The notes: generated by a model from the sequence alone, not told the origin. 63,807 nucleotides of DNA from a virus (IMGVR_UViG_3300050138_000202:1-63807); one strand, 5' to 3'; positions 2,911 to 63,807 are shown, counted from the stretch's first letter. Made by a program: numbers and translations.

Positions 2911-2912
2911 AC

Positions 2913-3847: not shown

Positions 3848-3874
3848 AATAATCTCCTCAATCTCTGTACTCCT

Positions 3875-3902: not shown

Positions 3903-4357
3903 TATTTATTTTTCTTTTTCATGTTCTTTTCTGCAAGCAAATATTGCAGATTCCAAGGAACATGTAGACCAGACACGTTTTTACCATTTATGGGCACAAT
4001 GTGATCTACATGATATCCATCAGGGCGATTTTCATAAATAGCATCTACGGCCTTCTTTTGATCGTTAGTCAACCAATGAGGCGTAGCCTGTTTAAGGCGC
4101 TGATCGTATCGCCTACTTCTGGCCCTAGCTTTGCCAGGATTGTTAATGCGCCACTTTCTGTCGCTTATCCTTCTTTTTTCTTTCTTTTCCTTGTCGGAAA
4201 GCTTAAGTCTAGGTTTACGATTTTTAAGTAATTGATTTTTGCGCTTCTTTTTAGAGCAGTCTTTGCAACAAGACTGTTTTCCATCTTTTGAGGTCTTTCT
4301 TGTATAAAAATCATCTGTACTTTTTACAAGACGGCAATCTGAACACTGTTTTAGCAT
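3899..4357 (-). CDS. HNH homing endonuclease
   Basis: N-terminal CxxC...CKDC zinc finger; YHVDHIVPINGKNVSGLHVPWNLQ HNH motif. Confidence 0.9.
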   Translation of the reverse strand: MLKQCSDCRLVKSTDDFYTRKTSKDGKQSCCKDCSKKKRKNQLLKNRKPRLKLSDKEKKEKRRISDRKWRINNPGKARARSRRYDQRLKQATPHWLTNDQKKAVDAIYENRPDGYHVDHIVPINGKNVSGLHVPWNLQYLLAEKNMKKKNKY

Positions 4358-31124: not shown

Positions 31125-34100
31125 ATGGCAAACACTAAAATTTCTCAATTACCAGTTGCCACCGGCACCAGCGGTCCAGACCTATATACGCTCGTTCAGG
31201 GCGGAGTGAATAAGAGCATCTCTCTCTCGGTACTGGCAGCCGCCATAGGCGTTGGCAGCGGCATTACGCAACTGACTGGCGATATCGCTGCCGGTCCTGG
31301 CTCTGGCTCCCAAGTCGCATCTTTAGTTGCCACGTCGAATAGCACACTCGTTACTCTATCCGCGCTCGCTCTTCCTTGGGCACAGCTGTCTGGCACCGTA
31401 CCTACTTTTAATCAAAATACGACCGGAAACGCTGCAACCGCAACTTTCGCAACTTCTGCTAGCACCGCAGCAACCGCTACACATGCCGTCACTGCTGGCA
31501 CGGCTAGCACAGCTCTAGTTGCTATAAATATGCCATACAGCGGTCTTACGGGCACCGTTCCTACTTGGAATCAGAATACGACTGGAACTGCAGCAAACAT
31601 TACTGCGACTTCAAACTCGACGCTAACTACGCTGTCAAGTTTGTCACTTCCATATTCTCAGCTGACGGGAACAGTTCCCACTTGGAACCAAAATACCACT
31701 GGGAATGCTGCGACCGCAACCACTGCTGTAAATATTACTGCAACTACAAATAGTACGTTGATCACGCTGTCGGCATTAGCACTTCCATATTCACAATTGA
31801 CTGGTACGGTCCCAACCTGGAACCAAAATACAACTGGCACCGCTGCTAATATTACAGCAAGCTCTAACGCTACGCTGACGACATTGTCAAGTTTGTCACT
31901 TCCTTATTCACAAATCACTGGTGCTCCAGCTTCTGGGGTTTCATCTGTCAACTCGTTGACTGGCGCTCTGAATATCGTTGCAGGTGCAGGTATTTCTGTA
32001 ACTCCTTCTGGAACAAATATTACAATCGCAATGACGGGTAGTAGTGGTATCAACCAATTAACTGGCGACGTTACAGCCGGTCCTGGTACTGGTTCCCAAG
32101 TTGCAACCTTAGTCGCAACATCTAATAGTACACTCGTTACTCTATCGAGTTTAGCGCTTCCTTATTCTCAGTTGACAGGAACAGTACCTACTTGGAACCA
32201 AAATACTACCGGCACTGCAGCGAATATCACTGCAAGTTCAAATAGTACCCTTGTTACCCTGTCTAGTTTAGCTTTGCCTTATTCGCAATTGACTGGTACT
32301 GTTCCGACGTGGAACCAAAATACAACTGGCACCGCTGCTAATATTACAGCAAGCTCTAACGCTACGCTGACGACATTGTCATTATTGAGTCTGCCATATT
32401 CTCAGCTATCTGGTACGGTCCCAACCTGGAACCAAAACACAACCGGAACAGCGGCCAATATTACGGACGCTTCGAATTCAACTCTGATCACATTATCAAG
32501 TTTGTCGCTTCCGTATTCACAAATCACAGGTGTTCCCGCTAACGTTTCGTCCCTGAATTCACTTGTTGGTGCTTTGACCTTGGTTGCTGGATCTGGAATA
32601 TCGATCATTCCTTCTGGCTCAAATATTACCATCACTGCGACTGGCGGTGGCGGTGGCATCAATCAATTAACTGGCGATGTAACTGCTGGACCTGGAAGTG
32701 GAAGTCAGGTTGCAAGCTTAGTCGCTACATCCAACAGCACGCTTGTTACGCTATCTGTATTGGCGCTTCCATATTCGCAATTAATCGGAACAGTACCTAC
32801 TTGGAACCAAAATACGACTGGTAACGCTGCCACGGTTACAACCAATGCTAATTTAACAGGTCCCGTTACAAGCGTAGGAAACGCAACCGCTATCGCTAAT
32901 GGCGCTATCTCTAACGCCATGTTGGCAAACAGCGCGGTCGCCAACCTCTCTGGAACAAATACTGGCGACGTCACCCTAACTGCTGTTGGTGCGACTCCTA
33001 ATGCCAACGGCGCTAGTCTATCTGGTCAAGTACTGACTCTACAGCCAGCAAACGCATCATTCCCTGGCGTACTTACCGCTGCTGACTGGAATACGTTTAA
33101 CAATAAGCTCGACGCTTCTCGTGGCAATTACATAACCAATCCAGACGCTGAAGTAAATACGGCTGGATGGAACCTGTATAATAATCAGGGTAATCCTGCA
33201 CAAGCTTTTGTTGTAGCAAATGATATCACCTATACGGCTGTCGCAGCTGGCAGTGCCGGAAACGGCATCAATATTGACTATATTTTCCATCCTACTCAGA
33301 GCTATCTTACTCCTCTCGTTACGGTCGTGTCGTCAACGCACGTCACCGTTGCTTGGTATAACGGTCCTACGATTGCGAACAATCCTACAGCGACACAGCT
33401 TAAGGCTGCGTGGGACGCTGTTCCTGGGGCGGTCGCTCTAGCCACGGCAGCTATTACTGGCGTTGCAGGAAATCTACAATACATCACCGGCTCACACATC
33501 ACGGCACTTGGCGGAGACGCCTCTCCTGTTGATGGAACTGGCGGAGCTGTCACTGGTGTTACATTTACCAGAAGTCTGATCAATCCACTAGTCGGAATTG
33601 CATCTTTTGATCTTGGTAAAGACGGAGTATCTCGCCAAGGCGAGGGCGTAAGTACAGATTTCATGATCAACAGTCTCGACAAGGGTCAAACACTTCAGGT
33701 GAGTTTTGCCTATAGTGGATCGTCTGGAATGGTGCTTGGTGCAAATTCTGATGTTCAGGTGTTCGTGTACGATATTACGAATGCAGTTTTGATCCCCGTA
33801 ACTCCACTTCGAACTATTGCAGGTCCTGTCAGCACGGCCAAGACATTCACTGGTCAGTTTAAGGCTTCTGCGACCAGCGTAAATTACCGACTCATTCTCC
33901 ACATTGCGACTGCAAACACTACTGCGTGGGATCTACAATTAGATAATTTTGTTCTCAACAGCGTTCTAAGTGCAGTGGCAGCTACGCAAGTTCCATCACT
34001 TGTTCTTTTAGCCAATCCTGTCAGCGGCGCTGTAACAGATCACATGGTCGTAATGTGGACAGATGGAGCGCAGCAATGGGTTCCGGCCACCATCACTGGT

Positions 34101-35837
34101 GCCGCTGGTTCAATTTCTGGCGATCCAGGCGTTATGTTGGGATTTGCCACAAACATCGTGGGACTGACTGCCGATATTTATATTCGCGGCTACATGAGTG
34201 GATTTAGTTTTGGTCCATTTGTCGGCTACGAACAATACATAGACAATACCGCTGGTCAAATTTCTCCCTTACCTTCGCCATTCAATGACACATACGTTGG
34301 AGTTGGTAAATCTATCAGTTCAACCGAACTCAATATTGATTTCTACAAACATGTCGACGCAGTTGGCGTCAAAGGTGGATTGCTTTCACATAGCGCAGTG
34401 AATGACGGTACAGGAGATCAGGTTCTTGCTGTAGGCGGTAATGGTAACGTTCTAGTAGCAAACTCTGCTGCAGCTTTAGGCATCAATTGGGCACCAGCTG
34501 TTGTCGCTGGTACAGGTTTGACCTATACCACTGCTACTCGCGCTCTTGCCTTATCAAACTTAGCTGGTGATGTTACTGGTGCTCCTCAAGCAAACACAAT
34601 TGCTGCCGCTACGGTGACTGGTAAATTAATTACAGGGTTTGTTTCTGGTGCTGGCGTTGTCGCAGCAACTGACACGATTCTTCAAGCAATCAACAAACTA
34701 AATGGAAACATCGCGCTTAAACAATCAAGCACTCTAACAAGTGGCCATATTTTGGTTGGAAACGTATCAAACGTAGCTACAGACGTTGCTATGACTGGCG
34801 ATATCACCATTACAAATGCGGGCGTAACCGCTATTGGTGCCAACAAGGTCACCAACGCCCTACTTGCTCAGATGCCTGCCAATACCTTCAAGGGTAATAA
34901 CACAGGATCAACCGCAAACGCTCTCGATTTGACTGCCAGCCAACTTTCTGCTGCGTTGAATTCTAGTATCGTAAATAGTTCTGCGGTGAGCGGAGCAACT
35001 GTCACTGACGCCCTCAACACCCTAAATCAGTCTGTCCAGGAAGTTCTTTTAAGCGCCATAAATAATGGATCTGCCGTTACAGCAAACACGACGATTGCGA
35101 CTTGGACTACGGTAAACGTGGATACGTTGTCGGGTTTCGTCGCCTCAACTGGTATTTACACTGTTGCTGTTGCTGGAGATTATCTAGTAGATTTCTCAGC
35201 CGCCACTACCATCGGCACGCCTTTAGCACAGGTTTACAAAAACGGAGTGTTGGTTCAAACTGGAATCGGCTCTGGAGTTAGAACAACTGTCAATACCGTA
35301 ATTACTGGATGTATCGTAGGCGACACCATCACTGTCGCCCTAGACACGTCTTTGACTTTGACGTCGACAAATACAGACACGATCTTGAATATCAGTAAGA
35401 TTTCGGGATATGCTAGTCAGACGATTAATGCTCGTTATCATTCTTGCGCGACCACGATCACTAGTGTTTTGGCAACCGTTACATATACGGTCACTGATTT
35501 CGCGACTAATCCAGCAGCATATTCAGCTGGAGTATATACGATTGCAAGTGCTGGCAAGTATTTAATCAAGGCAAGCTTGAGCTTGACCGCTGCGGCTGCA
35601 GTCGCAGGTAATAACTACGACATCATTATCCGTAAAAATGGCGTAGAAATAGCCAGAAACAAATATGTCGTCGGTGCTGCAACACAAAAACCCAATACGG
35701 TTGTGGTTGATGACTTGGTCTCTTGCGCAATAGGCGACACAATAGACATTCAAGCTTCAGCAGCAGGAACTACGCCAAGTATCAGTAACGGTACGACTAG
35801 TTTGAATTTTTTCTACGTCATGAAAATGAGTAATTAA
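31125..35837 (+). CDS. Giant tail fibre/adhesin-like virion protein
   Basis: 1570 aa Thr/Ala/Gly/Ser-rich; MANTKISQLP N-terminus; tandem repeats; C-terminal C1q-like beta domains (GIYTVAVAGDY, GVYTIASAGKY). Confidence 0.8.
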   Translation: MANTKISQLPVATGTSGPDLYTLVQGGVNKSISLSVLAAAIGVGSGITQLTGDIAAGPGSGSQVASLVATSNSTLVTLSALALPWAQLSGTVPTFNQNTTGNAATATFATSASTAATATHAVTAGTASTALVAINMPYSGLTGTVPTWNQNTTGTAANITATSNSTLTTLSSLSLPYSQLTGTVPTWNQNTTGNAATATTAVNITATTNSTLITLSALALPYSQLTGTVPTWNQNTTGTAANITASSNATLTTLSSLSLPYSQITGAPASGVSSVNSLTGALNIVAGAGISVTPSGTNITIAMTGSSGINQLTGDVTAGPGTGSQVATLVATSNSTLVTLSSLALPYSQLTGTVPTWNQNTTGTAANITASSNSTLVTLSSLALPYSQLTGTVPTWNQNTTGTAANITASSNATLTTLSLLSLPYSQLSGTVPTWNQNTTGTAANITDASNSTLITLSSLSLPYSQITGVPANVSSLNSLVGALTLVAGSGISIIPSGSNITITATGGGGGINQLTGDVTAGPGSGSQVASLVATSNSTLVTLSVLALPYSQLIGTVPTWNQNTTGNAATVTTNANLTGPVTSVGNATAIANGAISNAMLANSAVANLSGTNTGDVTLTAVGATPNANGASLSGQVLTLQPANASFPGVLTAADWNTFNNKLDASRGNYITNPDAEVNTAGWNLYNNQGNPAQAFVVANDITYTAVAAGSAGNGINIDYIFHPTQSYLTPLVTVVSSTHVTVAWYNGPTIANNPTATQLKAAWDAVPGAVALATAAITGVAGNLQYITGSHITALGGDASPVDGTGGAVTGVTFTRSLINPLVGIASFDLGKDGVSRQGEGVSTDFMINSLDKGQTLQVSFAYSGSSGMVLGANSDVQVFVYDITNAVLIPVTPLRTIAGPVSTAKTFTGQFKASATSVNYRLILHIATANTTAWDLQLDNFVLNSVLSAVAATQVPSLVLLANPVSGAVTDHMVVMWTDGAQQWVPATITGAAGSISGDPGVMLGFATNIVGLTADIYIRGYMSGFSFGPFVGYEQYIDNTAGQISPLPSPFNDTYVGVGKSISSTELNIDFYKHVDAVGVKGGLLSHSAVNDGTGDQVLAVGGNGNVLVANSAAALGINWAPAVVAGTGLTYTTATRALALSNLAGDVTGAPQANTIAAATVTGKLITGFVSGAGVVAATDTILQAINKLNGNIALKQSSTLTSGHILVGNVSNVATDVAMTGDITITNAGVTAIGANKVTNALLAQMPANTFKGNNTGSTANALDLTASQLSAALNSSIVNSSAVSGATVTDALNTLNQSVQEVLLSAINNGSAVTANTTIATWTTVNVDTLSGFVASTGIYTVAVAGDYLVDFSAATTIGTPLAQVYKNGVLVQTGIGSGVRTTVNTVITGCIVGDTITVALDTSLTLTSTNTDTILNISKISGYASQTINARYHSCATTITSVLATVTYTVTDFATNPAAYSAGVYTIASAGKYLIKASLSLTAAAAVAGNNYDIIIRKNGVEIARNKYVVGAATQKPNTVVVDDLVSCAIGDTIDIQASAAGTTPSISNGTTSLNFFYVMKMSN
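31240..32830 (+). repeat. Coding tandem repeats in the fibre gene
   Basis: 8 copies of VPT(W/F)NQNTTG units and 3 copies of QLTGD..AGPG.GSQVA; exact 72-nt duplicate at 31818-31889 and 32310-32381. Confidence 0.9.
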
Positions 35838-37883: not shown

Positions 37884-38161
37884 TACGGGTTATCCTGTGG
37901 TGGTGTATCTGGGGTTTTAGGTGCAACACCGGCCATATTAGACTTGTTGTCCCAGTAGTTTTTGGCCATAGCTGTAAAATGTTCAACTGAATTTCCGGCA
38001 AAAAAGGCTAGGGTAACATTTTTCGCTAAATCAACAAACCCTGGACCATCTATCAAATTAATGACCCTGAACACTATAGCTACCATTAGAATTAGGGAAA
38101 ATGCAATCATTTTCCTAAATCCCATAAGGATATCAAGTAGTTCTGCCAATCTTTGTCTCAT
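37883..38161 (-). CDS. Holin-like 2-TM protein
   Basis: GFRKMIAF.. two TMs, FFAGNSVEH. Confidence 0.55.
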   Translation of the reverse strand: MRQRLAELLDILMGFRKMIAFSLILMVAIVFRVINLIDGPGFVDLAKNVTLAFFAGNSVEHFTAMAKNYWDNKSNMAGVAPKTPDTPPQDNP

Positions 38162-38229
38162 TTTGGGACTCCTTAGTCTTCAGGGTGAGTATATCATGTA
38201 TGGGCACGAAGTCAAGCAATCTTTATTAC

Positions 38230-49736: not shown

Positions 49737-50273
49737 TTAAATGGTTTTGTCTTCCGTTGCAATCAAACGCTTGGGGAAATTCTGTTTCACAAACTTCGCA
49801 AGTATCTTTCTCAAGCGCTTGTTTGCCAGTTTTGTTTTCGGAGTGCGAAAACGCTTTTGGGAAAACAGGCCTTCAAAGAGCATGCTGAGGGCAGATAGGT
49901 GCAGGCCCTGTTTAGATGCCAAGGTAGCGATCTTGAAAAGCTTTTCGGGATCACGCGTATTGGTTAATTTTAATCCGCGAGTATTACCTGCGAATTCATT
50001 AGCGAAGCTTTCCACGGTCGCATTCGTGACAATGGCTGCGGCGAAATCGCTCAAAGGTCCAACCTCTTCTTTTTTACCAAGAGCGCAATCCAGGATGCCA
50101 CCAACCGCACATACAGCGCATTTGCTGTTGTTGGTCAATTTCTTGTCGGCCTTTCTGAATGGCACTACGCCGCCAGTGATATCGTCACGCTTGATGTGGA
50201 ACCATTTATTACCACGAAGCGGCTCAGTGCGAATCGCTTGCAGCACCTGTTTGCGCGTTACATTTAGTCTCAT
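49737..50273 (-). CDS. Hypothetical protein
   Basis: AGGAG RBS; CAVCAVG. Confidence 0.65.
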   Translation of the reverse strand: MRLNVTRKQVLQAIRTEPLRGNKWFHIKRDDITGGVVPFRKADKKLTNNSKCAVCAVGGILDCALGKKEEVGPLSDFAAAIVTNATVESFANEFAGNTRGLKLTNTRDPEKLFKIATLASKQGLHLSALSMLFEGLFSQKRFRTPKTKLANKRLRKILAKFVKQNFPKRLIATEDKTI

Positions 50274-53669: not shown

Positions 53670-54434
53670 TTATTTCGAGCGTCGAGCAGTTTTCTTCTTT
53701 GCAATGAATGCACCATTCGGTCCACGTTTTGCGTGGTTGTTTTTATAGCGCAGAGTGCGCTGTCTTTTTTGTGCAGGTGTTAGCTTATGGGTGTCGAGGA
53801 AGAGTTTCAACGCAGCGCCTTTGATAGGAGCGCCAGTAGGTGCAGGCGTCATACCTTCGTCTTCGTCGTCCACAAACTTCTCGATCTTGGTGCCCTTTGC
53901 AGTGACCACAGTCTCTTGCAATGCGGCCTGTGCCTCTGACAGAACTTCAAATCGGCATACGCGCAGTTTGTTGCCAGCATATGCGTCTGGCACTGCGACC
54001 ACGTCCTTCGGATTCACTTTTACGATAACCATCTTAGGTCCGAAGCCCTTAGCCATCTCGTACCCACCAACGTGCAGGCCATGTGAGCAGCTTTTCGTGT
54101 GGTCGTCGTCAACCAATGAACGATCCATTTCACAAACTTGGCCAGGGCGATTGTCAAACTTTCCGCTGTGTGAATCTTTGAAGTCTTCACGCACACCACG
54201 ATAACCAATGAAGTGCCCGTCTTCGGTGATAGCCGCCTTTTGTGTCTCCAAGAATTTGAAGAGGAACTGGCGCGTGTGGAATGAGGGATTGGCCTGCAAA
54301 TTTGCCCAGAAGTTGAGCAATGATTTGAAGGGAATGTTTTGATTCTTGTATTCGATGATCCTCGAATTCAATTCTGGAGGCATTGCTTGGCCCTTGAGAG
54401 TCACAAACTGAATTCCTTTTACGTCGAAGTGCAT
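53670..54434 (-). CDS. rIIB: rIIB-like protein (conserved core)
   Basis: ITEDGHFIGYRGV, CSHGLHVG, VKVNPKDVVAVP, KLRVCRFEV. Confidence 0.85.
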   Translation of the reverse strand: MHFDVKGIQFVTLKGQAMPPELNSRIIEYKNQNIPFKSLLNFWANLQANPSFHTRQFLFKFLETQKAAITEDGHFIGYRGVREDFKDSHSGKFDNRPGQVCEMDRSLVDDDHTKSCSHGLHVGGYEMAKGFGPKMVIVKVNPKDVVAVPDAYAGNKLRVCRFEVLSEAQAALQETVVTAKGTKIEKFVDDEDEGMTPAPTGAPIKGAALKLFLDTHKLTPAQKRQRTLRYKNNHAKRGPNGAFIAKKKTARRSK

Positions 54435-54524
54435 CTCATTCCCCTTCTGCGCACTCAGCGCCTCACATACACAGATTAGCACAGTATCAACGCATTGCAA
54501 AATTAATTTACGCATTGTATCAAT

Positions 54525-54818
54525 TTACTTCGCTGCTTCGTATATGCCAATGATTTTGAGTTGGCCAACCCATTCGTTCGTATATGAGCCAATCAGTTTC
54601 TCGCGCACATCTAGCTCAGCCTTGTCAAGCCAAAACTGACTGTATTGCCAAGTAACTGGCTCAGCCATGCCTGGCACCAATGGAATAGCGCCCATGATTT
54701 GCACAAACGAATCAGGACCTACCTCGTACACTTTAACCATGCTGCCAGCATCTTGGTTTATTTTGAGGCGTCCCATAATGTCACGCACCGTGATTAGCAG
54801 TGTATTGATATCGCTCAT
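54525..54818 (-). CDS. Hypothetical protein
   Basis: GAGG RBS; coupling. Confidence 0.55.
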   Translation of the reverse strand: MSDINTLLITVRDIMGRLKINQDAGSMVKVYEVGPDSFVQIMGAIPLVPGMAEPVTWQYSQFWLDKAELDVREKLIGSYTNEWVGQLKIIGIYEAAK

Positions 54819-55345
54819 GATGCCTCATCTTTCTCTTTATCGAACGGACGCACAGCAGGACAGCATTTGCAATGAAATTCTGTGGTGCGAAACAAATCGA
54901 CACGTTTCCAATCGTGCGCGATACACAGAGAGCCGTGCGCATTCCGTCCAGTGTCGATTGCCAAGCTAAGCTTATCGCGATCAACTCCAGAGAACATCGC
55001 ACCGCTCTGCTCATGCAATAAATTTACCTGATTGCCGTCTCCATTGAATGATACAATTTTATAAACGTGTGTATTGTTGCCGGTGCTCTTAACAATGTCG
55101 CCAGCCTTAAGAGTATTGGCGCGAGTACCAACGGGAAAGAAGTTTTTATGCCAAGACGTGGGCGGTAGTGCGGTGCCTGGTGTGCGTACCATGATGAGAC
55201 CAGTCGTGGAGTTATTGTCCTGTGGATAGACACATAGCTCGCCTAAATTGCTCTCAATTAAAGTGTATGGATGATTCAAAATGAAACCAATGCTTGCAGC
55301 GGTTGCGTCCTGGACAGCGTAAATTAAAATGTCCCCAGCCTTCAT
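54815..55345 (-). CDS. Hypothetical protein (SH3/KOW-like repeats)
   Basis: KAGDI twice; GAGGAGG RBS. Confidence 0.55.
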   Translation of the reverse strand: MKAGDILIYAVQDATAASIGFILNHPYTLIESNLGELCVYPQDNNSTTGLIMVRTPGTALPPTSWHKNFFPVGTRANTLKAGDIVKSTGNNTHVYKIVSFNGDGNQVNLLHEQSGAMFSGVDRDKLSLAIDTGRNAHGSLCIAHDWKRVDLFRTTEFHCKCCPAVRPFDKEKDEAS

Positions 55346-55754
55346 TTTAAGCCTCCTCGTCGTATATCTTTGAGTCACCTGGCTCATAGTTTCCGCGCGC
55401 ATGTCTCAAGTCTGCAATACTCTTGCCACCCTGAATGCAATGCAAATAGGTGCCAGTTTTAGTTCTGTAGTGCGTCACATCAGTTGGTTCAAATTGAGCC
55501 ACTGGGGGTACCTGAAGGTATGCGTACACGAGTGTCGATACCGTACCAATTAGAGAAAATAACATCACGCACAAAATCACTTGATTATCGTAGTCCACCG
55601 TGTTCTCCCGTGTGAAAAATTGCGCTGCAATATCCTGGTGACGCTCCGTAATGTGCATAACAATCAGGATCTTGCGTATCCTCACTGTTGTAAGGATCAT
55701 TACTAATACTAGCACACCCAGTCAAAAATACAACGCATAAGATCAATAATCTCA

Positions 55755-56063
55755 TTACGATACCTTCTTTAATTTGGTTTTACCTGTCCCATATACGAAC
55801 GTATTGTTTATGGACTCTTTGCCCATTGGCACTTCGACAAAATAGGTTAAGCCATTCTCAAATTGAACCAATGCATCTTTGCCCTTGACCACAGCCATCT
55901 CACTCTCGAATTCGATTGTGAGAACGTATCTGTGCGTCTTGACTTTCTCGTCCCACTGGTGGGAGCAATCATGGCACGTTACTTGCAATAGGCCATTTTG
56001 AGACGGGCCTTCGTTTGCAACATTCGTGCTACCGCATTCTGGGCACTTATCCTTTTTCGCCAC
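55755..56063 (-). CDS. Zn-ribbon protein
   Basis: CPECGS..CHDC. Confidence 0.6.
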   Translation of the reverse strand: MAKKDKCPECGSTNVANEGPSQNGLLQVTCHDCSHQWDEKVKTHRYVLTIEFESEMAVVKGKDALVQFENGLTYFVEVPMGKESINNTFVYGTGKTKLKKVS

Positions 56064-56256
56064 GGCATTGCTCCAGTTCTTGCATGTTGGCCAGCATCTC
56101 ATTCGCCTCATCCATATCAGACTGTTCGTTATTGATCCAACGATTCAGTTTCTCAATATCCAAGCGCAACTCTTCGATTTGCATGGACCACCCATCAATG
56201 CGCTTGGCACACTTCTTGATTTTGTTCTGCACTAAGTCGTATGCCGCGTCACTCAT
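56047..56256 (-). CDS. Small coiled-coil protein
   Basis: Co-directional ORF. Confidence 0.5.
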   Translation of the reverse strand: MSDAAYDLVQNKIKKCAKRIDGWSMQIEELRLDIEKLNRWINNEQSDMDEANEMLANMQELEQCRGEKG

Positions 56257-56551
56257 TTGGGCACCGCAATGATTTTCTTAATATGATCCGACACATGCTC
56301 ATACTTGGTCCATGCTGACGTTAGCGCCTCAGCGCGCGAATTCACATGCACTTCGTATGCCACTGGCTGAGCATCGTAATAAATCACTACAACCACAAAT
56401 GTTTTCACAACTCACCACCAACCAAAGATGCGGCCAAAGATGGGCAAATAGATTAATGAACTGACCACCAGCGCAAATCGGTCTTTGCCTTCGTCTGCTG
56501 CGGCCACGAGTATCACATTGAGAACTGACAGGATAACGCAATAGGTAATCA

Positions 56552-57169
56552 TTAGCTTGCTCCCCAGCCAGCAACAAGTGTGCCAACTTTTCCGTGTTTC
56601 TTCAAACCCTTTTCACGCTCTGATTTAACTTGAGCATCACGCGCCTTTTCCGCCAATTTGATTTTCGCATTTAGTTTCGCAATCTTGCGCTGCAAACCCA
56701 GTGGGCGGAAATCACCCTCGCCGCATACTGGGCATTTGGTGCTACCTTGGCGCAAATTCTGCGTAGCGACCTTAGAGTGACAGCCTTCGCACGTTGCAAA
56801 CTTCGGCAACTTAACAGGAGCGCGGACCAAGGTTAGCATTTGCGTATTCAGCGCCGTAAGTTTGGCCGATAACTTTTCAACCTTGGCACTGTATTTGAAT
56901 GCGGTTTTATCCAAGAATTTGTAGCGCACAGCTACCACGAAGTCCCATTTCTGGGCAGTCTTCATGCAATATTCATGCGCAGCGTTGTAATCATCGAACA
57001 TCAAATTGGTATGATCTTTGACATCATGAACAGTTTGAAAATCGCCTGAATAGCCTTCTTGGTGCCCGTTATAGTCGCGATTTTCTTTGCGTAAATCGTT
57101 AAACTTCTCTTTGATTGCATGGAACGAAGGTGCTCCAGCCATCTCGAATTCGATATTGTGCGCGCCCAT
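56552..57169 (-). CDS. Hypothetical phage protein with Zn ribbon
   Basis: GYSGD, CEGC..CPVC; AAAGGGG RBS. Confidence 0.7.
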   Translation of the reverse strand: MGAHNIEFEMAGAPSFHAIKEKFNDLRKENRDYNGHQEGYSGDFQTVHDVKDHTNLMFDDYNAAHEYCMKTAQKWDFVVAVRYKFLDKTAFKYSAKVEKLSAKLTALNTQMLTLVRAPVKLPKFATCEGCHSKVATQNLRQGSTKCPVCGEGDFRPLGLQRKIAKLNAKIKLAEKARDAQVKSEREKGLKKHGKVGTLVAGWGAS

Positions 57170-57189
57170 AAATTACCCCTTTGTTTCGT

Positions 57190-57540
57190 TTAGTTGCTTA
57201 AAACCAATGTTCCGTTACTAATTGTGTAATTGTCCGTAACTGGTCCCAGATGTCCAGTACATGAATTGTACGTGCTGGTAAAAGTAACGGTTCCACTATT
57301 AGCGCCAGGATTGTGGTCTACCCACGTTCCCGCCTCAACGCAAGTCGTCGGCGATGTTTGACTAAGGGTGAATGTTCCTGAGCCATCAATCTGAGCAACA
57401 GCACCAACGAAGTCCCAAGTATTGATAAGCAGCGATTTGGGAGCAGGACTTGAATCATTAGAGCCGCCGCTAGAGCCACAGGCGGTCAATCCAAAACCAA
57501 TCAAAGACAAAATCATTAGACGTTTCGTATTATTTAGCAT
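57190..57540 (-). CDS. Lipoprotein (lipocalin-like beta)
   Basis: Lipobox LTAC-GSSGG. Confidence 0.7.
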   Translation of the reverse strand: MLNNTKRLMILSLIGFGLTACGSSGGSNDSSPAPKSLLINTWDFVGAVAQIDGSGTFTLSQTSPTTCVEAGTWVDHNPGANSGTVTFTSTYNSCTGHLGPVTDNYTISNGTLVLSN

Positions 57541-57797
57541 ATAATCCCCTTATTCCCCGCGTTTAGAAAGGGCGCAGTCCAGCGGGGGAACCAGACTGCG
57601 CCACAAATTGTCTGTTCTGTTGTTGATTCGCTTGCAGCGACCGACAGACACAAATAGGTAATGCACGCGATGTGCCAATCATAACTAATTGAATTCATTG
57701 TGGTATCGTAATGAGAAGCTGTCGAACTTATGAGCATTTTTATTGCGATAAACCAAATTTACAGCTATCACAATAACTTACCTATCTGAATAACTTG

Positions 57798-57827
57798 TTG
57801 ACATTTTTCATATGTTCGACGTATGAT
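57798..57827 (+). promoter_or_regulatory. sigma70-type promoter, leaderless
   Basis: TTGACA-18 nt-TATGAT, ATG 6 nt downstream. Confidence 0.6.
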
Positions 57828-57833
57828 AGTGAG

Positions 57834-58376
57834 ATGAAACGCTGCTATGTGTGCGAAGCGACTAAGCCACTCATTGAATTCTATAAAAACGTCTCAACAA
57901 AAGACGGTTTGCAATCCATGTGCAAAATATGTACCAAACGCACTCAACGTGCTACTCACATACTAGATCCATCGCGGCGCTCAGAAGGCAATAAAAAGCG
58001 CTATTATAAAAACCACGAATTAAGCAAACAGAGAGCCCGCAAGAAACATGCCAAGTTTCGTTCAGACAAACCAAATGAATTCGCAACGTATCAAGCTAAG
58101 CAAAAGCTTGCTGGATATGGTTTATCGCTAGAAGAATACGATAAAATGCTATTAGATCAAGGACATAAGTGCAAGCTATGTCCTATCATGCATATTAAAT
58201 CTAAAAGCCTATGCGTAGACCACAATCACGCGACTGGTTTGGTACGCGGTTTGCTGTGTAGATCATGCAACTCAATGCTTGGCCTTGCAAAAGATAGTCC
58301 AATCACATTGGCTAATGGTATCGCATACCTAGAAAACGATTCTCTAAAAAACACTTTTGTAAAAAAACAGTTTTAG
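57834..58376 (+). CDS. Endonuclease VII-type homing endonuclease
   Basis: YGLSLEEY..QGHKC..LCVDHNHATGLVRGLLCRSCNSMLG. Confidence 0.9.
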   Translation: MKRCYVCEATKPLIEFYKNVSTKDGLQSMCKICTKRTQRATHILDPSRRSEGNKKRYYKNHELSKQRARKKHAKFRSDKPNEFATYQAKQKLAGYGLSLEEYDKMLLDQGHKCKLCPIMHIKSKSLCVDHNHATGLVRGLLCRSCNSMLGLAKDSPITLANGIAYLENDSLKNTFVKKQF

Positions 58377-58435
58377 GACTACCCTATTAACCACTCCCCA
58401 TCGAACCCACTGGGTACCCCCTGCAAGTTTTATGC

Positions 58436-58762
58436 CTATTTGATTTCGTGTCTGAATTCTACTTCGTCGCACCATTCGTGCATTGCTTTAACGGGCTTGC
58501 CTACGAGCCTATAGACCATAGCGTCGTATAGCATGCGTAGCTCGCGCAGTGCCTTAAAATACTCGCTAGCGTCGTCACTGGTGAATATTAAGCGCTGCTG
58601 TAACCTATTATCGACATACAACTTCATGTCGTCAATACCACGCTTATCATTCCAGAATAGCGGAGATACGCAACCGATGTTTATCCACTTGTTTTCTTTG
58701 GTGTATATGCGAACTGTTGCGCCAGCTTGGTACATCTCTTTTTCAACGACAATCATAGGCAC
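58436..58762 (-). CDS. Hypothetical protein
   Basis: Co-directional; downstream of the sigma54 site at 58931. Confidence 0.55.
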   Translation of the reverse strand: MPMIVVEKEMYQAGATVRIYTKENKWINIGCVSPLFWNDKRGIDDMKLYVDNRLQQRLIFTSDDASEYFKALRELRMLYDAMVYRLVGKPVKAMHEWCDEVEFRHEIK

Positions 58763-59156
58763 CTCAACTCAATCATGCCAAAAATCCCCAATTCTGCAAG
58801 AAATCTCTAAATGATACGCCTCAAAATCGAACGTCTCAGAATGAGACAATCCCAAAATGAGATGGCATGAATATTGCATAGTCTCAATTTGAGAATCCCA
58901 ATATGAGACGTGGCCTGGAAATTGCAGAGTGCAATCCGCGTGCCAATCCCAAATTGAGACTGGCACCGATCTTGCATGCGCCTATATGTGGCACCGATCT
59001 TGCTTTGAGCGATTATGAGAATCTTTAATGATATCATATAGTTCCGAGCGCCTCTTATAACGCGTTTAAAACGATCAGTCTCTAATTGGTGCGTCTCAAA
59101 ATAGTCACATCCAATTTGCGAAATTAATGTGGCATGGCCTTTTGAATTCCTATTGA

Positions 59157-59506
59157 CCGCGCCACGCGACGCGCGCAAAATTTAGTGCCGACGATACGCG
59201 GCCACTCGAAGGCCAAATCCGGCCCAACGCCCCAAAATGAGACGCGTTATTCGCCCCGCCATTGCATTTTGCCGATCAGGTCCATGCATCGGGACCCGTT
59301 CAAATTCTCGTCGCGCCACGCGCGCCACGCGCGCTCAAGATGCCACGCCACGCGCCACAATTGATGCGCCACGCGGTGTCGCCACGCCACGCGATCTTTG
59401 CCCAGCCTCGCGGTCACGCGCCGCGCGAAATCCAGCCACGCGCCGCGCTGCGCGGTTTAAAGGCCTATTCACGCGCTGAACAATAGGGCCACGCGCCGCG
59501 CGTGGC
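59157..59506. repeat. GC-rich non-coding GCCACG(CG) repeat tract
   Basis: About a dozen GCCACG units; only low-complexity Arg/Ala ORFs. Confidence 0.75.
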
Positions 59507-59597
59507 AGTCTATGCAAAATCAGGGCCAACACAAAATCCAATGCAAGTTCTATGCCAAGTCTAAAAACGTATGCAAATCCCATGCCAAGCCTCCAGT

Positions 59598-59765
59598 TTA
59601 TGCAATTTTCGTGCCAACTAAAGAAATTGTCGTATAATAATGCGCCTTAAAATGATACGAGTCTTCAGCCTGCAATCGCTGTGCCACAACTCTATATTTC
59701 TCATTTTGAAACGTGATCTCTTGTCCCACACTGAGACGCCGCTTGCACCAAATATTGCGACTCAT
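59598..59765 (-). CDS. Small hypothetical protein
   Basis: GGAGG RBS. Confidence 0.55.
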   Translation of the reverse strand: MSRNIWCKRRLSVGQEITFQNEKYRVVAQRLQAEDSYHFKAHYYTTISLVGTKIA

Positions 59766-59786
59766 TTTGATACCTCCATGCAAAAG

Positions 59787-60014
59787 TTATGCCAACACTG
59801 CCTGTTTTTCGATTGACAGGTCTGTCTCATATTCATCCGTATAATAATCGAGCAGTTCAGAGTGTTTCGCTTTGAAACGTACCATTTTGACACCTTCATC
59901 GGCATATTCTTTTATGAGACGTTTCAAACCAATGCGTGCCAATTCGAGACTGGAATAGACCTCCAGCCAATCGCTCGATCCTGAGACATGTCTCAAAATG
60001 AATACGTGTTTCAT
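59787..60014 (-). CDS. Small hypothetical protein
   Basis: AAGGA RBS; sigma54 motif at 60034. Confidence 0.6.
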   Translation of the reverse strand: MKHVFILRHVSGSSDWLEVYSSLELARIGLKRLIKEYADEGVKMVRFKAKHSELLDYYTDEYETDLSIEKQAVLA

Positions 60015-60049
60015 ATTGATATCCTTTCGTTATGCAAGAGTTATGCCAA

Positions 60050-60178
60050 TCAATGTACCATTTCGAGACGCAATTCAAACTCAATACCATCGCGCCTCAA
60101 AATGAGACATACCGCCCAGACCTCGGCCTCTGTCTCGTAATCGAACGTCTTACCTTGATACACCACAATGTGTCTCAT
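60050..60178 (-). CDS. Small hypothetical protein (42 aa)
   Basis: AAAGGGG RBS; sigma54 motif at 60198. Confidence 0.5.
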   Translation of the reverse strand: MRHIVVYQGKTFDYETEAEVWAVCLILRRDGIEFELRLEMVH

Positions 60179-60204
60179 ATTGAAACCCCTTTGTTATGCA
60201 ATAT

Positions 60205-60876
60205 CTATGCCACTTTGTCCCATTTGGTATTCTCAAAATTCTTCGTCCCATGGTAGCACAGTCCCACTTTGAGACACGAACCCAGCGCGGCGACCATATC
60301 GTCGTCTGTCCCATTTTGATACCCTGCCGCCTCTAATTGATCCATTGTCTCAAAAACGCGCGCATGGAAATCTGTCTCAATTTGAATCAGTTTGTCTTGT
60401 TTGCCACCAAATGAGAATATGGCACGGAAATTGCTAGGCAATCGCGCTTTCTCATTTTGAAACATCTGGACCTGTTTCGTGTACGCATAGAACGAGACAC
60501 GTTTGTCCGCCTCAAAATGAGACATGATCTTAACCCATCGGTTTAGATATTCCATGGAGTAAAAGTCGCCCGCGTCATGAATTCTCACAACGAGACGTTT
60601 GGTTGATCTCTTATTGAGCCACTTTTCAATGTCTGCAATCATCATGCCAACGAATGTATCATTTTGAGTCAGTGCCAGTTTGGCTTCGTGGGCGCGCTTT
60701 ACATTCCCAAATTGATACGCGCCTTGCCGCGCATAACATCCCACAGCGCACAATCCCGCATTGGGACACGTTTTAATCCCACTTTGAGACATAAACGCTG
60801 GGATGGTCCAATTCACGTTGGTAATCCCATTTTGAGACGATTTCTTCATCTTGCTATTCTGCGTTAAAAGATCCAC
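60205..60876 (-). CDS. Gene product 88-like protein (radical-SAM-like Cys motif)
   Basis: TCPNAGLCAVGCYA, RIHDAGDF, YAYTK; GTG start after AAAGGGGG. Confidence 0.75.
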   Translation of the reverse strand: MDLLTQNSKMKKSSQNGITNVNWTIPAFMSQSGIKTCPNAGLCAVGCYARQGAYQFGNVKRAHEAKLALTQNDTFVGMMIADIEKWLNKRSTKRLVVRIHDAGDFYSMEYLNRWVKIMSHFEADKRVSFYAYTKQVQMFQNEKARLPSNFRAIFSFGGKQDKLIQIETDFHARVFETMDQLEAAGYQNGTDDDMVAALGSCLKVGLCYHGTKNFENTKWDKVA

Positions 60877-60921
60877 ACAATCCCCCTTTGATACGTTTAA
60901 ATTTGAGATCCAATGCAATTC

Positions 60922-61380
60922 TTATGCCACAACTCGCGTGTCTCGAATTGAGTCAGGTATCCGTACCTTTTTGAGACCGACCAAAGACCTTGCAAGAGTC
61001 AGGCCATCGGCCCAATCTGATGCGTCTCCATCTGAGGCGATATCAATTGCATCGCCCAAATAGTGTTTCAAAATGAGAAGACATGCCACCACGACCGTAT
61101 CATAAGGATACTGTCTCGTTTTGCAAAAATTGAATGCCTCATTTTGAGACATGTGCTCCCTAAACGACATGGGCTCACACGAACCGACTCGTTCTGAGCC
61201 ATTCACATTGAGACCACCATATGTCTTAGAATGAGCCGTGTATCCAGATAGACCACCATGTGTCTCAGAATAGTCACGTATCAATTTGGCACATTTTACA
61301 ATCGCGGTCTGATATTTCTTCTCATTTTGAGACGTTTGGCCGCGTTGGCCCTTAAAAGTCCAGTAGTGTGTATAACCCAT
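60922..61380 (-). CDS. Hypothetical phage protein
   Basis: MGYTHYW...FCKTRQYPYD; AAAGGGGG RBS. Confidence 0.75.
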   Translation of the reverse strand: MGYTHYWTFKGQRGQTSQNEKKYQTAIVKCAKLIRDYSETHGGLSGYTAHSKTYGGLNVNGSERVGSCEPMSFREHMSQNEAFNFCKTRQYPYDTVVVACLLILKHYLGDAIDIASDGDASDWADGLTLARSLVGLKKVRIPDSIRDTRVVA

Positions 61381-61601
61381 AAAATCCCCCTTTGAGACAC
61401 GTTATTGTGTCTCTATTTAATACTAACACGATACGTCAAAAAAACACAATAGCGATTCTCAATTTGGGACAAATGCCCTGAATATATCCATTATGAGACA
61501 GTACCAAAGAAAGACAACGAATATCTTTTGTCCCATTAGGAGACATTTCCACGAAACAGCTTGACTTCTCATTTTGGTACGCCTAATCCTATTTCGTCCC
61601 A

Positions 61602-61997
61602 TTATGCACCACGCTTGAACTGTCTCGTATTGAGACCAAATACCTTCGCCGAGCCATTTTGAGCCACCATATATGCCGCCTCAGATTGAAACACTGGTGT
61701 ATCAAACTGTTTCAGCACGAATGTCTCATAAAGATACGGGTTATATGTAACAATTTCACACGCATCAATCTGAGACTGATCGTGCGCCACATCTAATGCA
61801 ATTAGTGTGCCAACGACGCCAGCGTGTACGTTTTTGCGACGTTCCAATAAGACACGCTCCCTGCCTCGTTTTGAGACTTTATAGTCGCAGTCTCGTAATG
61901 AGACGAAGTTGGCATGCGCTATAACGCGTCCCGTTTTGAGACATTTAACGCTCCATACCTTCTTATGCAGGTTAAAGTAGACGAACACGCGTCCCAT
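61602..61997 (-). CDS. Hypothetical phage protein
   Basis: VYFNLHK..WSV, RKNVHA, VTYNPY. Confidence 0.75.
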   Translation of the reverse strand: MGRVFVYFNLHKKVWSVKCLKTGRVIAHANFVSLRDCDYKVSKRGRERVLLERRKNVHAGVVGTLIALDVAHDQSQIDACEIVTYNPYLYETFVLKQFDTPVFQSEAAYMVAQNGSAKVFGLNTRQFKRGA

Positions 61998-62161
61998 TAT
62001 GAGACCAATCGTTTCATTATAAGCCAAGTCGCGCGCAATGCCTCAAAATGAGATGGTTGGGCAGGCTGAGGAATTGTCGCATTTTGAGACTCTTTACCAC
62101 TCAAGCCACCTTGGATCAAAATGAGATAGTTTCCCGTTTTGGTACGTTTAGCGTTGACCAT
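61997..62161 (-). CDS. Small hypothetical protein
   Basis: AAGGGGG RBS; TAATG coupling. Confidence 0.55.
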   Translation of the reverse strand: MVNAKRTKTGNYLILIQGGLSGKESQNATIPQPAQPSHFEALRATWLIMKRLVS

Positions 62162-62238
62162 AAAATCCCCCCTTGAAAATGTTTCAATCTGAAACACTAG
62201 CCAGCGCCCCAAAAATGAGACGCTGGTATTGTCCCAAA

Positions 62239-62538
62239 TTAAGCCGCTACCGACTCTTTGCGTTCCACATTGAGACGCTTCGCGGTAGACACGTTAATTA
62301 GTCCCAATTCGTTACACTTAACGAATCCCACTTTGAGAAGAAGTGTCTCAGCATCGCACACACGGTTTGTCTCATATTGAGTCGTGGTGACGCTGAATTG
62401 GGCTGTCTCAAAATTACCCCCAGCCGCCTCAATACGAGACTTGATGGCTGCGCGTTCTTTTTCGAGACGCTTCATTTCTTGTCCCAAAGCGATAAACTGT
62501 GCCAAATCGGCGTCAGTAGGTTTGATAGCTTTTCCCAT
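62239..62538 (-). CDS. Hypothetical protein
   Basis: AGGAG RBS. Confidence 0.65.
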   Translation of the reverse strand: MGKAIKPTDADLAQFIALGQEMKRLEKERAAIKSRIEAAGGNFETAQFSVTTTQYETNRVCDAETLLLKVGFVKCNELGLINVSTAKRLNVERKESVAA

Positions 62539-62640
62539 TTTGATACTCCTGTGCCTCATTTTGAGGCAGTTTAGTGGACCATTTTGGCACACCACAAGAC
62601 CGTCCCACCATGAGACGGTCCTAGCTGTGTCAATTTAAGA

Positions 62641-62883
62641 CTATTTAGTGAAAACCCCAAAGTGTCTCACTTTGGTACGACGTACCGTTTTGATAATGTA
62701 TTGATCTAAGACAATGGACCATCTGGCTTGAATTGAGACAAGCTCACCAATCTCAAAACGAGACAGGTCCTGATAAGTCTGCAATTCGTGGCCATTGACC
62801 TCTATAGTGCCGCCTAAATCGGCTAAGCGATGTTTCGTTTTGATACGCCCTTTGGCGCTGTGGGTTTTATCTGGATTTATCAT
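62641..62883 (-). CDS. Hypothetical protein
   Basis: AGGGGG RBS. Confidence 0.55.
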   Translation of the reverse strand: MINPDKTHSAKGRIKTKHRLADLGGTIEVNGHELQTYQDLSRFEIGELVSIQARWSIVLDQYIIKTVRRTKVRHFGVFTK

Positions 62884-63807
62884 TATGAGACCCCCTAAAG
62901 ATCCTGTCTTAATTAACAGGACACAATAGACTAATGCATGGAATAGGCCAAAGAATCCTCAATGATTTCAATAGCCTCAGTATGAGAAGCTGTCGAACTA
63001 GTATACGTCTCATCACTGTGAGACATGCTAACCCTGCGAAACAGTTCTGAAAAAACGATTTTGTATAACTATTAGTCGATGCACTGGGCGTAGACACCTG
63101 GATGTACCATTATGAGGCTATGCAATCTTTACCATTGAATAGAGGTCTATTCCCCTAAGTCTTAACAGACCGGCATGAATAGACCGCGCCACGGGCCTTA
63201 TAACACGTTATAACATGCCACGCGCGCCTAAGTCCTAAGCTTAGTCAATTTAATAGGGCTAGACAAAATAGATCAGGACCATGACTCATTATGGGACAGT
63301 CGAAGAGTTTGTCTACCTGCAAAGGCTGTGCCAAGTCTCGTTATGAGAATAGCATGGTGACGGGATGCAATAGGTGCGCCAGTCTCAATTTAATACGGGA
63401 TAGGTGGGTTTTCCCCGCCTCACTTATGGTCTGTCCCACCTTGATACACCTGGCCACGCGCTGGGTTTTTGTGTTTCAAATTGAGATAATCTCTTATTGA
63501 GAATCCCTGAATGAGACTGAGTTGGCATGGCACGATAAATGCACCGCAATAAACGTCACAGCCTCACATTGAGACTAAGTTGGCATGGTCCAGAAATTGC
63601 ATAGCGTAGAGTGGCATGTCTCATATAGGGATGGCACGCTTTTTGAGGTCTGTCGAACTAACAGTGACTGAGTTTGAGACGCTATTCCCTATACACCTTA
63701 GTTCTCGCTATAAGCGCCGTGGTAAGGTGTGTGTCTAAAGTTTCGTCGCACCATAATGAGCCGCTATCTCGTTGTATTCAATAGGGAATGTCAATTTTAA
63801 GGCCCTT

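Follow-up and report, generated by a model that had tools for sequence, protein, structure and literature searches.

Stretch IMGVR_UViG_3300050138_000202:1-63807, a viral DNA sequence of 63,807 nucleotides that is referred to in its entirety as the window, carries at its right-hand end a dense array of 103 short inverted repeats, or dyads. These are variants of a 17-bp site with the consensus YGTCTCA-WWW-TGAGACR, and they are found at the same density within genes as between them. The array is confined to a single arm of the genome, that of the early genes, and the same site is encountered in arrays of a similar kind in related phages as well as in a second, distant viral lineage. The explanation we favor, although tentatively and with a probability of around 0.4, is that these dense arrays represent an expanded operator field for a dimeric regulator that would coat or silence the immediate-early arm of the phage.

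The pentamer GAGAC and its complement GTCTC had drawn attention to this region in an earlier reading made from the DNA alone (the sequence-only reading), which counted about 68 of them by hand. A program returns the same number, 68 between positions 58,833 and 63,676, and all seven dyads quoted in that reading are present where it had placed them. The other 58.8 kb of the window contains 78 such pentamers (6.6 per 5 kb), which amounts to a 10-fold enrichment in the array, and the hexamers TGAGAC and GTCTCA are 28-fold enriched, with 51 in the array as opposed to 20 elsewhere in the window. The pentamer count nonetheless understates the feature. The site was modeled as a symmetric 19-column matrix, refined on the region and used with a cut-off of at least 9 bits. 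The matrix converges on the 17-bp consensus, with G at -7, T at -6, C at -5, T at -4, C at -3 and A at -2, the mirror image of these positions on the other side, and A or T in the center; the symmetry extends over the full 17 bp, and the centers of the two half-sites are 9 bp apart. With this model, 103 separate dyads are found between 58,810 and 63,755, on average 48.5 bp apart. The remaining 58.7 kb contains 20, and mononucleotide shuffles of this part give 8.2±3.2. Both halves are perfect hexamers in one of the 103 sites, one half is perfect in 39, and neither in 63. Because only 40 of the 103 dyads thus have at least one perfect hexamer, the hand count caught less than half of the array. 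Exact two-dyad patterns are also insensitive, giving 0-4 matches even in genomes with about 100 sites.

The limits of the array turn out to differ somewhat from those first proposed. The abrupt start claimed near 58.8 kb is indeed sharp, but only because a dyad-poor stretch (57.2-58.8 kb) precedes it, and beyond this there is a thinner tail that accounts for 14 of the 20 dyads outside the dense array. The proposed end at 63,680 does not hold, since dyads continue to the end of the contig. As the array reaches the contig end, and as the arrays of relatives fade only after 9-12 kb, the window almost certainly contains a truncated version of it. The claim that the density runs through open reading frames (ORFs) is borne out, with 22.7 dyads per kb in six minus-strand ORFs and 22.4 per kb outside them; within the ORFs, the sites occupy all three codon phases (23, 8 and 24 sites). 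A codon-preserving shuffle had been suggested as a control under which the enrichment might vanish, and the enrichment persists when such shuffles are run. The six ORFs hold 54 dyads, whereas synonymous-codon shuffles within them give 13.9±2.7, with a maximum of 24 in 500, and shuffles of codon order give 0.5±0.7. As the signal resists shuffling and is equally dense inside and outside genuine genes, it is imposed at the level of the nucleic acid.

Among 57 related viral contigs that were found, several represent complete genomes of 155-177 kb, with capsid proteins at 58-91% identity. Of the complete genomes, G001 (capsid 90% identical) and G002 (91%) are the nearest to the window, and each has its dyads in one place only: 109 at 47.2-59.2 kb in the former and 87 at 137.8-146.0 kb in the latter. 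Both of these arrays begin at a switch in ORF strand and thin out after 9-12 kb. A further relative, G003 (91%), starts inside the array, with 10 exact pattern matches in its first 2.8 kb, and 84 dyads are found in 12 kb of its locus L109. In the array-bearing genomes, rIIA/rIIB-like genes are located directly downstream of the array. The array is absent from the Myxococcus phage Mx1 and from G004 (capsid 89%) and G005 (86%), and no other hexamer clusters comparably there. When a further 26 relatives, G003 among them, were scanned with exact patterns, 23 had no match, G006 had one and G022 had four.

The DNA of the array region aligns between the window and its relatives only in patches, at approximately 70% identity. 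Within one block of two genes, in which the window and G001 share 68% of their nucleotides, 15 dyad positions are common to both (the window has 24 there and G001 has 20), and the dyad columns are 74.9% identical, against 64.9% for the other columns. In a block aligned across three genomes, the corresponding values are 81.5% and 62.6%. Within the gene for a conserved 152-aa protein, 8 of the 11 dyads are found at the same alignment positions as in the G001 orthologue, which has 10. These comparisons indicate that purifying selection acts on the dyad sites and that their positions are partly conserved.

The second lineage was found by searching viral contigs with the family of this 152-aa protein, after which 80 kept loci were examined. 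Three of them (L110, L111 and L113) display the same dyad consensus at 10-21 dyads per kb over 6-8 kb. They belong to the genomes G031 (118 kb, classed as complete, with terminal repeats), G032 and G033, for which the dyad counts are 87, 64 and 89, respectively, and the consensus of the window has been recovered in five other arrays overall. The capsid proteins of this lineage are only 30-32% identical to that of the window. Since the array genes, at 63-65%, are far more similar than the capsid, the array appears to travel between lineages within an early-gene module. A set of genes is shared by the genomes with arrays in both lineages and lacking in G004, G005 and Mx1. It includes the rIIA/rIIB-like, RNR-like, ThyX and UDG-like genes as well as those for DUF932, GP88, and the 152-aa and 205-aa proteins. 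A smaller cluster was also observed in locus L114 (positions 780-4,160), from the 39.7-kb genome G034, in which a homologue of the 152-aa protein is accompanied by a mini-array of around 17 dyads at a threshold of 8 bits. It favors the half-site variant GTATCA, includes a perfect TGTATCA-ATA-TGATACA, and contains two sigma54-type motifs within the stretch.

A sparse form of the system is found in G022, a genome of 168.5 kb with a capsid protein 69% identical to that of the window. Only 13 strong dyads are present, between 36.2 and 44.3 kb. Four of these occupy exactly the 17 bp that separate a -35-like hexamer (TTGCAT, TTGAAA, TTCAAA or TTGCAA) from the sequence TAAGTT. All four cassettes are oriented with the gene strand, a ribosome-binding site and ATG follow after about 45 nt, and each of the four dyads has a partner 37-39 bp further upstream. 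The remaining dyads lie upstream of similar cassettes, each of which is followed by a run of T. Such placement in the spacer is typical of an operator, and it offers the best clue to the role of the putative binding protein. On the strength of these cassettes, the protein would be a regulator of early promoters.

The symmetry of the site raises the alternative that the dyads act as stem-loops (6-bp stem, 3-nt loop) in RNA or single-stranded DNA, which could be the target of a nuclease, a terminator or a hairpin promoter of the N4 type. G-U-tolerant pairing is indeed commoner on the sense than on the antisense strand (53 versus 22 in the window, 44 versus 24 in G001, and 29 versus 13 in G002), and between 6,300 and 11,140 of L110 some dyads tip longer, G+C-rich, terminator-like hairpins followed by T runs (for example, at 8,510-8,538 and 10,492-10,518); it looks as if these terminators were built around pre-existing dyads. 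Against this, the two halves do not covary. Complementary positions between the halves number 396 of 618 in the window, compared to 404±6 when halves are re-dealt among sites, and 2,175 of 3,234 in six arrays, compared to 2,192±15. Departures on both sides that remain complementary number 9 in the window, with 13.5±3.1 expected, and 60 in the six arrays, with 74±7.5 expected. Furthermore, a full six-pair stem is possible in only 22 of the 103 sites even with G-U pairs allowed, fully self-complementary sites are rarer than expected (21 versus 39.6, a count of little weight because it is biased downwards by the choice of sites on total score), and no Rfam family matches 55-63.8 kb at E ≤ 1. As the halves vary independently, the dyad is read as a duplex site, and a role as a hairpin seems extremely improbable. 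The sense strand does show an asymmetry, with G-for-A at +4 outnumbering C-for-T at the mirror position by 38 to 12 in the window, 33 to 16 in G001 and 18 to 11 in G002. This mild difference accounts for the excess of G-U-tolerant pairs on that strand, but it is regarded as a compositional effect of the coding strand and not as evidence for a stem. Sites with two perfect halves are likewise rarer than independent halves predict, at 12 versus 26 in the six arrays and 1 versus 4.1 in the window; this deficit is partly an effect of selection on total score, and avoidance of perfect palindromes could also contribute.

There is also some order in how neighboring sites are spaced. Nearest-neighbor distances of up to 80 bp (n = 384, six arrays) display a weak periodicity near 10.25 bp. 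Its power is 10.0, whereas the maximum of a jitter null has a 99th percentile of 7.8, and the phase falls at 0.5-0.7 turn in all six arrays. With such a phase, a site and its neighbor lie preferentially on opposite helix faces. In the dense arrays, distances of 36-39 bp between nearest neighbors form a local peak as well.

Taken together, the symmetric motif, the independent variation of its halves, its conservation and its restriction to one early transcription arm argue for duplex sites that are recognized by one dimeric protein. The dyads would thus be operators for a single sequence-specific protein with two-fold symmetry, which is probably a transcription regulator of the immediate-early genes; we infer its binding, its regulatory role and the direction in which it acts, and it may originate from either the phage or the host. 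In the sparse relative, the site sits where an operator classically does, inside the promoter. In the clade of the window and in the second lineage, it would have been multiplied to about 90-110 copies, filling the promoter-proximal 7-12 kb of the early-gene arm, within genes as well as between them. If filled by the protein, the field would cover the arm along its entire length and block both initiation and elongation, and it would also act as a sink that buffers the free concentration of the protein. The outcome would be a delayed, switch-like change in early transcription, more probably its shut-off. The binder is considered to be independent of the sigma factor, since the array accompanies sigma54-like promoters in the window clade and words rich in TTGAC in the other lineage. 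That the arm is an early one, as the sequence-only reading had supposed, is supported by the rIIB-like gene adjoining the array tail, since the rII genes of T4 are early genes. The same reading had offered a protective coating or a parS-like array as alternatives, of which the coating comes close to the explanation favored here whereas for the parS-like array no ParB_N domain exceeded the cut-off in the window and five relatives.

A more ambitious version of this explanation is that the immediate-early genes contain a sequence-programmed protein coat, in which about 100 medium-affinity sites, read by one dimeric protein and pushed through the genes themselves, combine a roadblock with a titration sink to give a switch-off with a sharp threshold (or else drain a host factor), in a module that is mobile between unrelated lineages and able to work with either sigma54 or sigma70. 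We consider this somewhat doubtful. If true, it would be the equivalent, in a bacterial virus, of the repeat families by which herpesvirus and papillomavirus genomes are tethered or switched.

A number of points weigh against the operator field. A repressor would need sites only at promoters, and the roughly 55 sites in coding sequence would be explained by coating or titration alone. In the dense arrays, only 0-3 of the 64-109 dyads lie in a sigma70-like spacer, which is the level expected by chance, as are the 2 of 103 dyads with -35/-10-like flanks in the window. An operator position is seen in the sequence of G022 only, and its capsid protein is just 69% identical. The six arrays share ancestry and are hence not six independent observations, and the helical phasing is weaker at a stricter site threshold (power 5.4). 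No recognizable DNA-binding domain was detected among the genes examined from the array or from those shared by the array-bearing genomes, a set that takes in a minority of the small ORFs. The two folded candidates, of 152 and 205 aa, have no significant structural relative (best Foldseek E of 0.17 and 0.19, respectively, against the PDB), and the latter also occurs in array-less phages.

Candidates for the binder were taken as genes present in G001 and G002 and absent from G004, G005 and Mx1, narrowed with the help of G031. Those surviving are RNR-like, RlaP-like, rIIA/rIIB-like, DUF932, PA14, trypsin-like, ThyX and UDG-like proteins, an AAA_25 ATPase, and small ORFs that belong to no family, and none of these can be recognized as a binder of specific DNA sequences. 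The 152-aa array protein has a fold that is predicted with confidence (predicted local distance difference test score, pLDDT, of 80.5), but no relative of it was found in the PDB. Its family comprises at least 248 viral proteins, and searching the protein atlas for it gave only unnamed viral clusters. A scan of bacterial genomes with this family returned a single match of 34% identity, on a 5-kb contig of 76% G+C from a metagenome-assembled genome labeled as a delta proteobacterium; the contig has no dyads, and the match was set aside as evidence for a host. The 205-aa protein (56,552-57,169) is predicted to fold into a sheet domain and a long antiparallel coiled coil with a four-Cys knuckle at its end (pLDDT 89.9), and its match to the Rad50 zinc hook is not significant. 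It was dropped as a binder as its family is also found in the array-less contigs of L115, L117, L127 and G006 and is absent from G022.

The sequence-only reading proposed a phage super-enhancer, or else a sponge, that captures a host activator. As a super-enhancer, the dyads would be upstream activating sites for an enhancer-binding protein, from the host or an unrecognized one from the phage, that fires the many sigma54 promoters of the region. The consensus of such promoters is TGGCAC-N5-TTGCA, and scans were made with GG and GC fixed and with at most two or at most one mismatches. At two mismatches, 31 of the 48 matches in the window fall in its last 8.4 kb; at one mismatch, there are 24 in 55-63.8 kb, 18 of which are on the gene strand; and exact matches to TGGCAYN5TTGCA number 16 in the window. 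Several of the motifs lie about 20 nt before a start codon, and in G001 inspection by eye places them in intergenic cassettes that recur along the region, upstream of a leader and a ribosome-binding site. Also by eye, an IHF-like word is present in the G001 cassettes between a dyad-like site and the -24 element. The regions of the clade with sigma54-type early promoters were noted as 55.4-63.6 kb of the window, 48-63 kb of G001 and 137-146 kb of G002. The window and five complete relatives were searched for the domains PF00158 (activator) and PF04552 (sigma54 DNA-binding), and neither was detected. Judged from the sequence, the early genes of this clade appear to be expressed from sigma54-type promoters in phages that themselves encode no sigma54 and no activator domain, and early promoters of this type without a phage-encoded activator are unusual in themselves.

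The part of the super-enhancer claim that stands is the crowding together of sigma54-type motifs and dyads, which is observed in the window, G001, G002 and G003 (L109), at roughly 4-5 dyads per motif, and both are missing from G004, G005 and Mx1. The plan of the dyad moreover resembles the NtrC site, TGCACC-N5-GGTGCA, in being 17 bp long with G at -7, C at -3, A at -2 and an A/T center. What does not stand is the connection between the two. The arrays at L110, L111 and L113 have 92, 67 and 94 dyads with only 2, 0 and 0 sigma54 motifs, respectively, and when their dyads are masked it is TTGAC-type words that are enriched. Conversely, L112 has five motifs and just 7 dyads in 15.4 kb, L114 has three motifs and 15 dyads, and G022, with dyads in sigma70-like spacers, has a single sigma54 motif in 35 kb. 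When dyad centers are mapped around 49 motifs from three genomes, they are distributed evenly from -150 to +100, except for the excluded core, with no upstream preference, although in the window there are small peaks approximately 25-35 bp upstream and 25 bp downstream of the C of the -12 element. In G002, 9 of the 10 motifs are not on the strand that carries the called ORFs of the region but on the other one. As full arrays occur without motifs and motifs with hardly any dyads, with no upstream bias and no activator domain in the phages searched, the dyads are not tied to sigma54, and a function as enhancers is very unlikely. For the GAGAC-type sites of AcoR-like activators suggested in the sequence-only reading, a full-text literature search gave nothing relevant among the papers listed.

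The array could also be a sponge that captures a host DNA-binding protein, such as a repressor, a nucleoid protein or a defense factor, on the early DNA and thereby depletes it from its own targets. This is unlikely, yet a number of features are as a sponge would have them: the number and density of the sites, rather than their exact position, seem to be selected (9 of 24 window dyads have no positional partner in G001), most sites are imperfect, the motif is identical in two lineages with distant capsids, as would be expected of a conserved host reader, and no phage-encoded binder was found among the genes examined. Nevertheless, the G022 dyads are built into the phage's own promoters, which is a regulatory and not a decoy position, and a sponge does not require confinement to one transcription arm. 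An array that anchors or positions the phage genome, in the manner of F sopC or the EBNA1 repeats of Epstein-Barr virus (EBV), would similarly have many dyads in one block, and the mean spacing in the window is close to the 43 bp of the sopC repeat, with neighboring sites tending to opposite helix faces. Such a centromere or tether is highly unlikely, as the sites are not tandem repeats and are located inside genes, and as no ParB_N domain (PF02195) exceeded the cut-off in the window, G001, G002, G031, G033 or G022, in a search whose scope did not extend to partition ATPases; one sub-threshold match, of 15.9 bits, contains two internal stops. In addition, the phages look virulent, with no integrase or plasmid-maintenance gene noticed, though no search was aimed at either.

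Finally, the dyads could be a cluster of boxes for a host or phage factor that acts at an origin, in packaging or as a stop signal during injection. The array exceeds any origin or pac site known to us, with around 100 sites over 7-12 kb and through genes. An injection-stop cluster has been proposed for phage T5, in which the first-step-transfer region is described as rich in repeats and palindromes and as containing eight DnaA boxes; this cluster, in the iss region, is proposed to capture a host DNA-binding protein and to hold T5 DNA at the membrane (10.1101/866236). The array adjoins the strand-switch point in G001 and G002, and the contigs of the window and of G003 both break inside it. On the other hand, the private, non-coding repeat clusters of these phages (GCCACGCG in the window, and 13-bp and 24-bp units in G001) look more like iterons, and the array lies in mid-contig in G001, G002 and G031, the contig ends of which do not correspond. 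An origin, packaging or injection-stop function is accordingly judged to be most improbable.

The operator field has partial counterparts among known systems. The stoperators of Cluster A phages, which are bound by the L5 repressor gp71, are 13-bp asymmetric sites that are oriented with transcription, number about 25-35 per genome and are mostly intergenic. As proposed here, one protein acts at dozens of sites along transcription units, beyond the promoters, to silence a gene arm, and two of the window array genes belong to the L5 families gp82 and gp88. The window sites, in contrast, are symmetric, number around 100 in 5-12 kb and are as dense in genes as outside. An asymmetric, one-orientation site of the stoperator type was ruled out, given that the site is symmetric with only the mild strand difference at ±4 (38 versus 12). 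Operators in promoter spacers are matched by the G022 dyad, which fills the -35/-10 spacer of a repeated early cassette and has its upstream partner, but not by the window, where the dyads are mostly intragenic. Phage coat proteins such as phi29 p6 and SPO1 TF1 are abundant, cover DNA at regular short intervals and repress early promoters, and the sites of TF1 are concentrated in the early-promoter-rich region of a large myophage. They read DNA shape or base modification, however, and not a 17-bp sequence such as that of the window array, and no HU-like or p6-like gene was noted here, although no search was aimed at one.

Enhancers of the NtrC type share with the window clade a 17-bp dyad of similar plan beside sigma54-type promoters, and they differ in that the present arrays also occur without sigma54 motifs, have no upstream bias and are accompanied by no activator gene. 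The repeats of sopC and EBV likewise bring together tens of dyads for one dimeric protein in one block, at intervals of about 30-45 bp, but these are tandem and non-coding and have a dedicated binder gene, unlike the sites of the window, which are non-tandem, lie in genes and have no accompanying ParB_N domain in the genomes searched. Sequence-specific dyads at around 20 sites per kb with full coding overlap distinguish the arrays from all of the systems considered here. The T5 iss region resembles the array in bringing together boxes for a protein, repeats and palindromes where the phage genome acts first, but it is untranslated and lies in a terminal repeat, with its eight boxes serving a known host protein, as opposed to about 100 intragenic sites in the window (10.1101/866236). 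The VpsR site presented in PMC6158489 does not match the dyad. No description of such a dyad array was found among the papers listed in full-text searches of the literature.

If a single protein does read the dyads, about 38% of a gene block of 5-12 kb would be given over to binding it, with a cost that is visible in the proteins encoded there. This would imply strong selection for regional, rather than promoter-by-promoter, control in large environmental phages, and would be a natural example of decoy-site or coating logic in a bacterial virus. The sparse sites of G022 and the dense arrays of the window, G001, G002 and G031-G033 would then form an evolutionary series leading from ordinary operators to a saturating array. 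Such a system would also provide a handle on the timing of host takeover in uncultivated Mx1-like peat phages, and would supply synthetic biology with an orthogonal protein-operator pair that is compact and has sites of graded strength.

Table 1. Features of the array and its surroundings in the window
Feature	Position	Strand	Basis or remark
rIIB-like gene beyond the array tail	53670..54515	-	phrog_609, E 3.5e-49
Thin array tail	54753..57907	.	14 dyads of at least 9 bits, centers 54,762-57,898
Dyad-poor stretch	57190..58762	.	endonuclease VII-like gene and two small minus-strand ORFs
Endonuclease VII-like gene	57,795-58,376	+	phrog_2633, E 2e-34
Dense dyad array	58802..63763	.	103 dyads, centers 58,810-63,755; matrix and shuffle controls
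Sigma54-type motifs TGGCAY-N5-TTGCW among dyads	58863..63601	mostly - (gene strand)	dyad centers excluded from motif cores
G+C-rich gap in dyads, filled with GCCACGCG repeats	59150..59510	.	9 exact copies at 59,161-59,499
Four tandem sigma54-type motifs, 29-30 bp apart	59513..59616	-	facing the G+C-rich repeat block
Small early ORF, 75 aa	59787..60014	-	ATG inside a dyad
GP88-family gene (mycobacteriophage L5 gp88 family)	60205..60918	-	PF17338, E 2.7e-41; dyads in coding sequence
Conserved 152-aa viral protein gene, fold family unassigned	60922..61380	-	11 dyads
L5 gp82-family gene	61602..62027	-	PF25735, E 3e-35; dyads in coding sequence
Two small ORFs with dyads	62,239-62,595 and 62,641-62,883	-	second has a G001 homologue
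Stretch with no ORF of at least 80 aa	62884..63807	.	dyads and sigma54-type motifs up to contig end
Isolated strong dyad, 20.6 bits, divergent intergenic gap	38154..38170	.	matrix scan

The dyad-poor stretch upstream of the dense array (Table 1) may be an insertion. The isolated dyad centered at 38,162 is the only strong one standing alone outside the window array, and no strong dyad that might be its counterpart was seen outside the arrays of G001 or G002, so that no autoregulated gene has been nominated on the strength of it. Within the array, there is a dyad-free gap of 415 bp (59,236-59,651) that contains the GCCACGCG repeats and the four tandem sigma54-type motifs. The repeat cluster is private to the window phage, and the array region of G001 has a different tandem repeat: at 50,006-50,240 of its contig (L072), a 13-bp unit and a 24-bp unit are repeated in tandem, in about 11 copies, inside the dyad region. 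This suggests that each phage keeps a private repeat cluster in its array region, possibly as an origin. Plus-strand sigma54-type motifs (58,863-58,989) also point at the 350-bp GCCACGCG block, in which there is no long ORF and no Rfam match, and which might correspond to a non-coding RNA, a cluster of iterons or a trap for sigma54. The right end of the window and the start of the G003 contig were also seen to be two independent contigs that break inside the array, which may reflect either trouble in assembling repeats or a physical feature.

The window corresponds to a whole IMG/VR virus record of the class linear, and its CheckV completeness of 39% identifies it as a fragment of a genome, that of an Mx1-like myophage of around 170 kb from peat. 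In the major capsid protein, the window and Mx1 (169.6 kb) are 50.5% identical; a collection of annotated phages contained none that is closer, and the protein also has weak N-terminal matches to SPO1-like capsid proteins. The DNA sequencing runs that contain the stretch are peat metagenomes, one of which may be its source, and among the runs listed as holding it none is of RNA. The left 36 kb contains structural genes on the plus strand, including those for the capsid and a sheath-like protein, and from there to the right end the ORFs are mostly small, on the minus strand and without known function. No terminal repeat was seen in the window. The DNA of the array region found no match in the phage collection in either near or distant modes of similarity search, and the gp82-like protein, used as the sole query, recovered no related viral contig.

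Three further observations concern genes outside the array. A PurZ-like gene is found at 73-1338 on the minus strand (phrog_1211, '2-aminooxy adenylosuccinate synthetase', E 9.8e-53), and blastp detected no homologue in G001 or G002. PurZ is a marker of phages that substitute 2-aminoadenine for adenine, and if the window DNA carries this base then each A of the dyad would be affected. At 2913-2986, also on the minus strand, ARAGORN predicts a tRNA with the anticodon tta, a reader of the stop codon TAA. Lastly, an ORF of 1,570 aa (31,125-35,837), which probably encodes a repetitive tail or fiber protein, harbors diverged internal direct repeats at 31,251-32,830 with a spacing of 117-375 bp.

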